Origin: a virus
Lineage: Duplodnaviria; Heunggongvirae; Uroviricota; Caudoviricetes
Virus record (IMG/VR): IMGVR_UViG_2897352509_000007
Direction: 5' to 3' (one strand)
Length of the DNA stretch: 64,000 nucleotides
A program made the position numbers. Positions 33,001 through 36,000 of this stretch are shown piece after piece. Within the stretch, counting starts at the first letter, position 1. Each line of letters opens with the position of its first letter.

Positions 33001-36000
33001 GATGCGCTGAGTATCACTGATGTGATGGCCGCGCAGGGCATGACACAGAATCGGGCTGAGATGGGGTTTTCTGCGTTCCTTGGGAAAATGGGCATTAGTA
33101 TGAATGACAGAGAGCGGGCAACAGAATTGCTGACAGAATATGCACTCAGTCGGTGTGATCGCGTGGCGGCGTTAAGAAAACTCCCGGCAGAAATAAAACC
33201 GGCAGTGATGCGTATTATGGCTTCGTATGCGTTTGAAGATTATGCCCGTAGCGCGGCGAGCAAAAAACAGTGCCCCTGCTGTCACGGAAAAAAATTTATT
33301 GAAAGCGAGGTTTTTACAAACAAGATCCAGTATCCGGATGGTAAGCCGCCAGTGTGGGCAAAGTGCACAAAAGGCGTGTATCCGTCTTACTGGGAGGAAT
33401 GGAAAAAAGTCAGGGAGGTGGTAAAAGTTGCCTGTCCGGAGTGTGGAGGGAAGGGAGAGGTATCCACTGCCTGTAAAGATTGTCGTGGGCGCGGTGTTGC
33501 CATTCATCGTGAAGAGTCGGAAAAACAGGGTGTGCCGGTTTTCAGAAACTGTCAGCGTTGTGGTGGGCGTGGCTATGAAAGATTACCTTCAACGGAGGCA
33601 TTTAATGCCATATGTAATGTAACCGATGCCATATCTCTTGATACATGGAAAAAAACAGTTAAACGTTTTTACGATACGCTGGTGGTGCAGTTTGATATTG
33701 AAGAAGCATGGGCAGAACAACAACTGAAAAAGGTGACCAGATAGCTTTGTTGATTTTTCCCGAATCTGTGGTAAATTTGCCCAAACGATGGGCGTTTTAT
33801 GCCTGACGTTAGAAGATTTTTTACACCCCGCCGCCTGGCGGGTTTTTTATGACTGAAATCGCGTCAGTACAGTAAACGCGCTGGTGGCGGTGAATACCGG
33901 TCTTTCAGCTTGCTGGCTTTTTTGACAAGAGTTATTGGTGTGTCACGTTAACCGAAAAAGGGAAAAAGACATGCTGAAACAGCAGGATATGACAGAAACT
34001 GCCAGAGCAGTGTTTAATGAATTAAGCGTCACCGAACCGGCGACAGTCGGGGAGATTGCGCAGAATACTTACCTTTCACGCGAACGCTGCCAGTTAATAC
34101 TGACCCAGCTTGTTATGGCGGGTCTGGCAGACTATCAGTTCGGTTGTTACAGACGCCTTCAGTCCTGAAGGCTTTTTTATTTGTGGTAAATGGGCGACTG
34201 GTGGGTGTTAGGGGCACTCACCAGCCATCTGCTCATGCGTCTGGATCACAAGCAAACCTCAGGCCCACTGCTTTGCGCAAAAGCGGTATGAGCCTATCAG
34301 AGACAGGCTTAATGATCCATGTTTAATACTGTAAAAATATCCAGTTGTGAGTTAATCAACGCCGACTGCCTGGAATTTATCCGGTCGTTACCCGAAAATT
34401 CTGTTGACCTGATAGTCACGGACCCGCCGTACTTTAAAGTGAAGCCTGAGGGCTGGGATAACCAGTGGACGGGTGATGAGGATTACCTGAAATGGCTGGA
34501 CCAGTGTCTGGCGCAGTTCTGGCGGGTGCTGAAACCTGCCGGAAGTCTTTACCTGTTCTGTGGCCATCGCCTGGCATCTGACATTGAAATCATGATGCGT
34601 GAACGCTTCAGTGTGCTGAACCATATTATCTGGGCGAAGCCGTCCGGACGCTGGAACGGGTGCAACAAGGAAAGCCTGAGGGCGTATTTCCCCGCCACAG
34701 AGCGCATTCTGTTCGCGGAACATTATCAGGGGCCGTATCGTCCGAAAGATGCCGGGTATGAGGCGAAGGGCAGGGCACTGAAACAGCATGTGATGGCTCC
34801 GCTGATTTCTTACTTTCGTGATGCGCGTGCTGCCCTGGGGATAACGGCAAAACAGATAGTGGATGCCACAGGAAAGAAAAACATGGTGTCGCACTGGTTC
34901 AGTGCCAGTCAGTGGCAGCTACCGAACGAAAGCGATTATCTGAAATTACAGGCGCTGTTTGCCCGGGTGGCAGAAGAGAAGCATCAGCGCGGTGAACTGG
35001 AAAAGCCCCACCACCAGCTGCTGGAGACGTATACTTCACTGAACCGGCAGTATGCGGAACTGCAGAGTGAATATAAACATCTGCGGCGGTATTTTGGCGT
35101 GACGGCGCAGGTGCCGTACACGGATGTGTGGACGCATAAACCGGTGCAGTACTATCCCGGGAAACATCCGTGCGAAAAACCGGCAGAAATGCTGCAGCAG
35201 ATAATCAGTGCGAGCAGTCGTCCGGGTGACCTGGTTGCAGATTTCTTCATGGGGTCGGGTTCGACAGTCAAAGCCGCGATGGCGCTGGGGCGTCGTGCAA
35301 CTGGCGTTGAGCTGGAGACTGAACGTTTTGAGCAGACGGTCAGGGAAGTACAGGATTTAGTCAGTCAGAACGGATGATATTGCAGGATTAGTTACGTACC
35401 GTTATTATCCTGCGCCCGGCCCTTTAGCTCAGTGGTGAGAGCGAGCGACGCATAATCGCCAGGTCGCTGGTTCGAATCCAGTACAACGCGCCACACTTAT
35501 TTTCCCTGGCTCGCTTTTGCGGGCCTTTTTTTAAATGTCTCACAATTCAGGCGGTTGACTGTTGTCTGGTTTGCGGGGAGTTTGTTAAAAGAAACTGGCA
35601 TGGTGAATCCCCCTGTGCGGAGGGGCAATCAGCAACCAGGTATATGGGGTAATCGCGGATTCAGGTGCTGGTACTGAATTCACCGGGAGGCACCCGGCAC
35701 CATGCAAGAAAAAGAATGTGCATGCAAACATGCCCCTCTCCGGAGGGGCTTTTTTATGGGTAAAAAAATGCCCGAATGGGTTCGGGCAATAGCATGAGAT
35801 ACTGATATTGTTGTGTTGTTATCGTGTGGATTTTAACCAGGGTTTATCAGGCTGCGCAACTGCGTGGCCTTTTTTCATTTCTTGGGCTGTAGTCCCCGTG
35901 TGTCATTCAGGCTTCCGGACTACAGCCCACTCCATATCTGATTTAATACACTATCCCGGCCGGGAGGAATAATGACATTTAAACATTATGATGTTGTCAG

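Follow-up and report, generated by a model that had tools for sequence, protein, structure and literature searches.

What kind of gene is a tRNA-like sequence whose acceptor strands do not match, and has the interval that follows it, at the place where Stx phages carry their toxin genes, been emptied of stx? These questions arise from the late region of the prophage analysed here, which lies within a 64,000-nucleotide stretch of caudovirus DNA (IMG/VR record IMGVR_UViG_2897352509_000007; hereafter the window). Our comparisons with intact phage tRNA arrays and with RNA family models leave us in little doubt that the tRNA-like sequence is an in-register hybrid of ileZ and argO and a non-functional pseudogene, and that the interval behind it is a convergent module of an STnc100-family sRNA and AgvB rather than an empty stx site.

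The genetic neighbourhood is that of a Stx phage. A first-pass annotation, made from the sequence alone, had recognised the order Q, methyltransferase, tRNA, nanS-p and lysis genes, and this order is borne out by Pfam domains and RefSeq. On the plus strand, the late antiterminator gene Q (32923-33744; PF03589 Antiterm, E 5e-52; labelled 'antitermination protein' by RefSeq at the same place in EC4115) is followed by a DNA N6/N4 methyltransferase gene (34319-35377; PF01555, E 7e-44; WP_000483509.1), which is a moron downstream of PR', and by the tRNA-like sequence itself (35418-35494). Further downstream lie a nanS-p-like 9-O-acetyl sialic acid esterase gene (35972-37918, plus strand; DUF1737, SASA and DUF6645 domains), whose homologues in phage records are named yjhS or 9-O-acetyl-N-acetylneuraminic acid deacetylase, and then holin and lysozyme genes. 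Between the methyltransferase gene and the tRNA-like sequence, positions 35380-35417 match 933W at 38 of 38 bases, and the first 29 bases of this stretch in 933W are annotated as 'pT; putative tRNA promoter'. By this identity we place a retained putative pT at 35380-35408 on the plus strand; in a generic sigma-70 scan it scored below the pass mark. On the other side, the terminator that follows argO in intact arrays (35508-35531, hairpin 35508-35525, plus strand; a 7-bp stem with six GC pairs and a T7 run) corresponds in alignment to what the 933W record calls a 'possible rho-independent terminator upstream of the stx genes'. With promoter-like sequence and terminator both preserved, the hybrid is probably still transcribed.

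The hybrid carries a D arm, an anticodon arm with CAT at 35451-35453 (plus strand), a T arm and an encoded GCCA, as the first-pass annotation had described, and its two halves can be assigned to different genes. Its 5' part (35418-35466, plus strand), comprising the acceptor 5' strand, the D arm, the anticodon arm and the variable loop, aligns with ileZ of Nil3 and 933W with position 35450 as the sole exception, and its last base, G35466, is of the ileZ type. The 3' end (35482-35494, plus strand), comprising the acceptor 3' strand ACAACGC, the discriminator G and CCA, is identical in alignment to the argO 3' end of Nil3. The crossover falls within T-arm sequence shared by the two genes (35467-35481, plus strand): with a Nil3-like parent as reference it is confined to CTGGTTC (35467-35473), between the ileZ-type G35466 and the argO-type G35474, and it extends to 35481 if the parental ileZ carried a TTCGAAT T-loop, as in ETEC1749.

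The earlier observation that GGCCCTT cannot pair with ACAACGC holds, with only G1-C72 and U7-A66 formed (2 of 7 pairs), whereas ileZ and argO each form all seven. The natural partner of ACAACGC is the argO 5' strand GCGTTGT, with which it pairs at 7 of 7 positions and which is deleted in the window. No alternative 5' partner with six or more pairs was found within 48 nt upstream, and the best adjacent candidates up- or downstream of the hybrid, which we rejected, reach 5 of 7; for GGCCCTT there is a 6/7 match at 35519, which is part of the terminator hairpin and stays unused in the minimum free energy (MFE) fold. In addition, the base at tRNA position 33 is G instead of the almost universal U (35450, plus strand). 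All intact ileZ genes that we examined (Nil3, 933W, PhiR49_2, Sakai Sp10 and ETEC1749) have T at this position, and G33 occurs only in the two aligned hybrid copies, those of the window and CAU16175. When we asked whether G33 is older than the deletion, the one candidate, hit H70, which resembled an intact ileZ with a single mismatch, proved to have T33 together with a TTCGAAT T-loop; G33 thus stayed restricted to hybrids, while the possible crossover interval became wider.

Comparison with intact arrays shows what has been lost. In Stx and other lambdoid phages, here 933W, Nil3 and PhiR49_2, an ileZ-argN-argO array occupies the same place downstream of Q and PR' as the hybrid does here, and these arrays share with the window the pT region, the ileZ 5' sequence, the argO 3' end and the terminator. 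They differ in that the window has a single hybrid, G33-bearing and unpaired in its acceptor stem, in place of three genes: it does not hold intact ileZ, argN and argO between pT and the terminator, while the flanks, pT and the terminator are conserved. Against the arrays of Nil3 and PhiR49_2 the alignment contains a single clean gap with identical sequence on both sides, and the missing segment comprises the ileZ 3' end, the whole of argN and the 5' part of argO. The 3' break on which the first-pass annotation had remarked is this ileZ/argO deletion junction. Judged by blastn offsets, the deletion measures 174 bp when Nil3 or PhiR49_2 is the reference and 176 bp with 933W; the T-arm direct repeats of ileZ and argO are spaced 174 bp start to start in the intact Nil3 array, equal to the deletion, and are the only direct repeats in the intact array at that spacing. 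Over 35380-35527 only four bases separate the window from Nil3, namely 35386, G33 at 35450, and the crossover markers 35466 and 35474.

We believe that the ancestor was a lambdoid prophage with an array of ileZ (CAU), argN (UCG) and argO (UCU) running from pT to the terminator downstream of Q, in which the T-arms of ileZ and argO, direct repeats that were nearly identical, lay 174 bp apart. Deletion of the DNA between these T-arms, probably by replication slippage or by recombination over short homology, joined the 5' two-thirds of ileZ in register to the 3' third of argO. The resulting RNA would keep three arms and a CCA end, with acceptor strands that come from different genes and cannot pair, and with G33. 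Given these strands and G33, we infer that it would not be a normal substrate for RNase P, for aminoacylation or for the ribosome. The hybrid resembles a general class of pseudogenes, those that arise when tandem tRNA genes undergo deletion, in its in-register fusion at a conserved T-arm repeat and its mismatched acceptor strands. The literature searched for ileZ/argN/argO yielded only unrelated papers and no earlier description of this ileZ/argO hybrid. The locus offers a base-resolution case of a rare-codon tRNA array beside stx decaying through deletion between T-arm repeats.

The behaviour of tRNA-detection tools is in line with this structure. The Rfam tRNA model RF00005 matches 35424-35483 with 37.3 bits (gathering score 29), and all three arms align, with G instead of U at position 33; the match is local and leaves the acceptor stem unaligned, since it extends only from position 7 to 64 of the 71 in the model, whereas the parent genes score over their full length (ileZ 72.5 bits, argO 68-70 bits). 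The hybrid has a predicted fold of -24.6 kcal/mol (z -1.1; z -0.98 with flanks), against -33.5 kcal/mol (z -4.0) for ileZ. ARAGORN, which the first-pass annotation had proposed as a check, called no tRNA anywhere in the window at default settings and none in the hybrid region with thresholds lowered to 80% of default; at 70% it returned a 90-nt 'tRNA-?(His|Ser)' in a different register, which we judged meaningless. RefSeq, on the other hand, annotates a 71-nt tRNA-Met in EC4115, equivalent to window 35423-35493 and without a pseudogene flag, and among the matches listed the same label stands on the hybrid in every genome that carries the junction. A tRNA call therefore exists, but it is not one with a paired acceptor stem: the feature begins 5 nt inside the canonical 5' end, so the annotating software, too, failed to find a place for the acceptor stem. 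A tRNA-Met label stands on a non-functional fusion of ileZ and argO in 161 or more complete E. coli genomes in RefSeq, and this mislabelling inflates the counts of phage-borne tRNAs used for codon-usage and prophage comparisons. In other respects the locus is ordinary, and our findings leave the current understanding of Stx-phage biology unchanged.

Of 5426 complete E. coli genomes, 161 carry the junction, in each case as one contiguous, 100% identical piece, and among the matches listed all carriers are of the STEC type. They include the early finished genomes EC4115, TW14359 and O111:H- 11128, and the allele is unchanged across several serogroups and distant STEC lineages; because of this identity, sequence variation cannot show relaxed constraint. 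None of the deposited phage genomes has the junction, and it is absent from the species-representative genomes in an exact-pattern scan. The window matches the prophage at 1.74-1.77 Mb of EC4115 with 99.8% identity.

The proposal that the interval is an empty stx slot does not stand. Homology to 933W ends at about 35531 (933W locus 2909) and restarts at about 35536 (locus 4245), bracketing stxA2 and stxB2, so that stx2AB of 933W maps to a single point at about 35533-35537, for which no strand applies; the remainder of the interval is a conserved sRNA module of about 430 bp, which in 933W also lies downstream of stxB. No stx was detected in the window by tblastn (best E 0.12) or blastn, and there is no remnant. 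The same stx-free junction is present, identically, in the stx-negative phages Nil3 and PhiR49_2, and for this reason nothing marks the junction in the window as a vacated stx site. Stx phages carry stx downstream of the argO terminator and ahead of the sRNA module, and our comparison locates the insertion point relative to these two elements.

Among the options first raised for the tRNA-like sequence, pseudo-tRNA and recombination scar both stand, since its halves map to ileZ and argO. The remaining option, an unusual tRNA that still functions (as tRNA-Met or tRNA-Ile2, its acceptor region being non-canonical), is implied by the RefSeq label in EC4115 and the other junction genomes listed, and would be consistent with the intact D, anticodon and T arms and CCA end, the kept putative pT and terminator and an Rfam score above the gathering score. 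We nevertheless regard it as extremely improbable given two acceptor pairs of seven with no substitute nearby, the replacement of U33, the rejection by ARAGORN at 80% thresholds, the truncated RefSeq feature and the exact mapping of the halves to two different genes. Assemblers can collapse repeated tRNA genes, and the break does lie within repeated sequence; a sequencing or assembly artefact has, however, a negligible probability, and we conclude that the junction is not one because the same identical piece recurs in 161 independently assembled complete genomes. Alternatively, the hybrid could be dead as a tRNA and yet have gained another use: its predicted transcript of about 115-125 nt, starting at pT and ending at the argO terminator, would then have been co-opted, either as an sRNA or as a decoy that resembles a tRNA, for instance for enzymes that modify or cleave tRNAs. 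The conserved pT region, the intact terminator and the unchanged allele would fit this, as would the location in a hotspot for regulatory sRNAs (PMC4104026). Against it, the fold is no stabler than that of shuffled sequence, recent spread of a single prophage allele explains the identity among copies, and deposited phage genomes lack the hybrid; we therefore hold co-option to be very unlikely. Only the same slim chance can be given to a more specific form of this idea, in which a CCA-ended RNA from pT, with three intact arms and an open acceptor end, would be retained in STEC prophages as a decoy or regulator that titrates, for example, TilS, anticodon nucleases, toxins or other enzymes recognising the tRNA-Ile2/Met body or the anticodon loop, or would serve as a source of tRNA-derived fragments.

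It could also be argued that the prophage is a former Stx phage in which one deletion event both broke the tRNA array and removed stx, as the gene order and an stx insertion point about 40 bp downstream of the hybrid might suggest. The tRNA deletion, however, ends inside argO and leaves the argO 3' end and terminator intact, the terminator is joined to the sRNA module just as in Nil3 and PhiR49_2, whose tRNA arrays are complete, and no stx remnant is left, which together indicate that the tRNA break and the absence of stx are separate and that the stx-free junction is a common one. A single event is, in our view, highly improbable, and we retain the interpretation of an ileZ/argO pseudogene followed by an sRNA module.

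This module accounts for most of what lies between the hybrid and the esterase gene. The first-pass annotation had seen only two strong terminators and no open reading frame in the interval 35495-35971. The absence of a convincing protein-coding gene is correct, with only mechanical open reading frames of 40-54 amino acids, but our scan detected four strong terminator-like hairpins, at 35508-35525 (plus), 35732-35749 (plus), 35788-35769 (minus) and 35849-35870 (plus). Three of these terminate known RNA genes, two of which, STnc100 and AgvB, lie within the interval. The esterase gene leader (35849-35929, plus strand; -48.6 kcal/mol, z -3.3) contains two strong hairpins, the one at 35849-35870, which a T-run follows, and one with a 13-bp stem at 35883-35929.

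The STnc100-family gene (35569-35761, plus strand, with its own terminator at 35732-35755) matches Rfam RF02076 over the entire model (1-206 of 206) with 144.5 bits (gathering score 47). This family corresponds to EcOnc27/sRNA103, which is located downstream of stx2B (PMC12370729, PMC12711010). Like the window gene, the 933W copy, which lies 75 nt downstream of stxB2, matches the full-length model and is placed alike with respect to the anti-sRNA and the esterase gene; the two differ in score (207.7 bits in 933W) and in sequence, with about 73% DNA identity over 35536-36070, and the window copy directly follows the tRNA terminator whereas that of 933W follows stxB. The modules also differ in the second sRNA, which is AsxR in 933W and AgvB, an anti-GcvB sponge, in the window. 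AgvB (35763-35824, minus strand) is convergent with STnc100 and antisense to late transcription, between the moron cargo and the conserved esterase open reading frame, and it matches RF02702 with 96.5 bits (gathering score 56) and the consensus at 62 of 62 positions. In the MFE fold its 5' CACAACA, which is the GcvB R1 target motif, is unpaired, and a terminator hairpin accompanies it.

AgvB was described as EcOnc01a/b of the E. coli O157:H7 Sakai prophages Sp10 and Sp17 (Tree et al. 2014, PMC4104026), as was the convergent sRNA arrangement upstream of an esterase open reading frame (PMC4104026). The window copy is identical (62/62) to AgvB1 and AgvB2 of Sp10 and Sp17 and shares with them this arrangement upstream of a nanS-p-like gene. 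In strain Sakai the identical sequence is expressed, bound by Hfq and relieves GcvB repression of dppA (PMC4104026). The cargo upstream of AgvB differs, being methylase and hybrid tRNA in the window, ileZ4, argO4 and TciA/TerB in Sp10, and without tRNAs in Sp17, and we accordingly rejected an assignment of the window to either of these published AgvB hosts. The coordinates given by Tree et al. (PMC4104026) are shifted against the current Sakai record, by about 140 nt at AgvB1 and also at Sp17, and for this reason we set aside a placement of their EcOnc06 on the window. The window prophage is a third prophage context for AgvB and a further carrier of this fitness-relevant sRNA.

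The tRNA-like sequence at 35418-35494 reads GGCCCTT-TA-GCTC-AGTGGTGA-GAGC-G-AGCGA-CGCATAA-TCGCC-AGGTC-GCTGG-TTCGAAT-CCAGT-ACAACGC-G-CCA, and its acceptor strands are indeed unpaired, as noted in the first-pass annotation. GGCCCTT and ACAACGC form 2 of 7 pairs, the Rfam tRNA model gives a local match (35424-35483; 37.3 bits, gathering score 29) over model positions 7-64 of 71 that includes the three arms and leaves out the acceptor stem, and ARAGORN reports no tRNA in the entire 64-kb window, nor in this region with thresholds cut to 80%. Intact ileZ, argO and argN all match full-length, at 72.5, 68-70 and 50-55 bits, respectively. 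The predicted fold of the 77-mer (-24.6 kcal/mol, z -1.1) does not rise above shuffled sequence, compared with -33.5 kcal/mol and z -4.0 for intact ileZ. In addition, a substitution at 35450 changes U33 to G; the equivalent base is T in all intact ileZ genes examined and G only in two aligned copies of the hybrid.

A megablast search of phage records matched the window in two pieces to Nil3 and PhiR49_2, two lambdoid phages that lack stx. Each has a set of three tRNA genes here; ARAGORN reads their anticodons as CAT, TCG and TCT, and in the nomenclature of the Stx phage 933W they are named ileZ, argN and argO. The window follows both phages through ...CCAGGTCG in ileZ, lacks one block, and rejoins them at CTGGTTCGAATCCAGTACAACGCGCCA in argO, so that the 3' break is a deletion junction, as the first-pass annotation had proposed to check. 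By blastn offsets, 174 bp are missing when Nil3 or PhiR49_2 is the reference and 176 bp when 933W is. Nil3, whose array is intact, has direct repeats in ileZ and argO ending GGTC[G/A]CTGGTTC[A/G]AATCCAG that lie exactly 174 bp apart, start to start. Just four positions between 35380 and 35527 differ from a Nil3-like parent (35386, 35450, 35466 and 35474), and since 35466 is ileZ-type and 35474 argO-type, the crossover lies within CTGGTTC (35467-35473), although an ileZ allele with a TTCGAAT T-loop in strain ETEC1749 means that the interval could reach 35481. The unpaired acceptor stem is fully explained because its strands derive from two genes: the 5' strand is that of ileZ and the 3' strand that of argO, each pairs 7/7 with its native partner (AAGGGCC and GCGTTGT, respectively), and both partners are deleted.

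We are highly confident that deletion between T-arm direct repeats is what best accounts for the sequence: loss of the DNA between the ileZ and argO repeats would leave a hybrid tRNA gene that is dead. The earlier suggestions of a pseudo-tRNA and of a recombination scar thus both hold, whereas that of an unusual tRNA fails: a functional molecule is very unlikely given that the acceptor helix is absent and has no alternative partner, that position 33 is G, and that both finders fail at the acceptor. With the putative tRNA promoter pT unaltered (38/38 relative to 933W) and an intact terminator, the locus probably continues to yield an RNA of ~115-125 nt. That this transcript has been co-opted as an sRNA or decoy strikes us as highly improbable, because its fold does not exceed that of shuffles and none of the deposited phage genomes searched contains the hybrid.

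A further reading joins loss of stx and breakage of the tRNA into one event, but the argO 3' end and terminator lie intact between the two sites and contradict it. Relative to 933W, window 35302-35481 matches the pT region and the ileZ 5' part (95%), 35462-35531 the argO 3' end with the terminator annotated 'upstream of the stx genes', and 35536-36070 the DNA from 42 nt past the stxB2 stop into the yjhS-like gene (73%). In a four-way alignment the 933W cassette (stx2 promoter region, stxA2, stxB2 and ~40 nt beyond) falls between ~35533 and ~35537. No stx was found in the window, and Nil3 and PhiR49_2 share the same stx-free join, which therefore shows no scar.

The supposed empty slot is in fact occupied: Rfam places STnc100 (35569-35761, + strand, 144.5 bits, full length) and AgvB (35763-35824, - strand, 96.5 bits, 62/62 consensus identity) in the remaining ~430 bp, past the stx insertion point. 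Rather than only two strong terminators, the interval holds those of three RNA genes, argO (35508-35525), STnc100 (35732-35749) and AgvB (35788-35769), plus a fourth hairpin, a terminator-like stem with a T-run (35849-35870, +). Together with a 13-bp stem (35883-35929, +), the latter lies in the leader of the nanS-p-like gene (fold z -3.3 over 35849-35929); these hairpins may form the 3' end of another sRNA, or may be a terminator that late transcripts read through under Q. The stem at 35849-35870 also overlaps the likely AgvB promoter region on the opposite strand. Hypothetical-protein ORFs annotated antisense over STnc100/AgvB (window 35585-35731, -; 4209-4352 in our EC4115 locus, L004, pseudo; 4872-5390 in our Sakai Sp10 locus, L006, ECs_1960) are likely to be false gene calls across the sRNAs.

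The sRNA module is not new and is represented in Rfam. Convergent sRNAs between PR' moron cargo and a conserved phage ORF, exactly the arrangement here, have been described (Tree et al. 2014, PMC4104026), as has binding of AgvB (EcOnc01a/b; Sakai Sp10 and Sp17) to the GcvB R1 seed, which relieves dppA repression and confers a growth advantage in bovine rectal mucus (PMC4104026). STnc100 corresponds to EcOnc27/sRNA103, which binds Hfq and lies 75 nt past stx2B (PMC12711010, PMC12370729); a 2026 preprint relates it to PasD. Downstream of stxB, 933W has the same module, with STnc100 (207.7 bits) and the related anti-sRNA AsxR (88.1 bits). The window's AgvB is identical to both Sakai copies (62/62). 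Over 35580-36027, identity is 97.3% with Sp17 and 92.9% with Sp10; the upstream cargo is unlike either. Homology with Sp10, Sp17 and phage PPyecE_EH1910 starts at one common base, 35580, which falls within the STnc100 match at its 5' end. The cargo upstream differs per element (tRNAs, TciA/TerB, or plasmid-stabilisation/regulator genes), a pattern suggesting that recombination has repeatedly exchanged morons at a boundary near 35580. In Sp10, ileZ4 and argO4 lie ~100 bp apart (L006 4206-4458), the full-array spacing, with nothing annotated or called by ARAGORN at the argN position; this argN seems to have decayed through point changes, not deletion.

A 70-nt junction-spanning query gave a single full-length, 100%-identical match in 161 of 5426 complete E. 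coli genomes, which rules out an assembly artefact; carriers among the matches listed include O157:H7, O111, O103:H2 and untyped strains. By contrast, 2495 of these genomes contain the middle part of the intact array, which makes the hybrid a minority allele and not the usual state. The junction was absent from 50,697 deposited phage records and was not found in species-representative genomes. Across 24 kb the window is 99.8% identical to the EC4115 prophage at 1.74-1.77 Mb, and a 24-kb query also found the surrounding prophage in O45:H2 and O121 strains. As the counts leave hardly any room for T33 hybrids, a single origin followed by prophage or module spread would be the simplest reading; in swine strain CAU16175 the hybrid is the same but the region downstream of it has diverged, which shows later recombination.

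RefSeq labels the hybrid tRNA-Met with no pseudogene flag, as in ECH74115_RS33745 of EC4115 (window 35423-35493; NC_011353.1 1753686-1753756; L004 4044-4114), whose 5' end is 5 nt short of canonical, and likewise in the other genomes listed as carriers. The PGAP tRNA caller is tRNAscan-SE, so this label reflects software recognising the tRNA body and gives no evidence for a paired acceptor stem. Searches on ileZ were unproductive, and we found no earlier account of an ileZ/argO hybrid in the literature; the array itself is well known, and the hybrid adds a new case to a familiar type of lesion. In practice, the outcome is a corrected annotation, and the stx insertion point is mapped at base resolution against the tRNA terminator and sRNAs.

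The gene order described previously is correct: the Q antiterminator (32923-33744, PF03589), a 65-aa ORF, an N6/N4 DNA methylase (34319-35377, PF01555), the hybrid, a nanS-p type esterase (35972-37918, DUF1737+SASA+DUF6645), then holin and lysozyme. Because ~76 bp at the methylase 3' end (35302-35377) share 95% identity with DNA that lies upstream of pT in 933W and is non-coding there (2505-2580 in our 933W locus, L005), 933W appears to retain a 3' remnant of a lost methylase gene. Elsewhere, an Rfam match to the sok antitoxin RNA (30338-30512, +, RF01794, 111.7 bits) implies that the prophage carries a hok/sok-type toxin-antitoxin locus in its early-right region, and another (23556-23607, -, RF00039, 76.7 bits) corresponds to DicF, a cell-division-inhibiting sRNA typical of Qin/lambdoid prophages.
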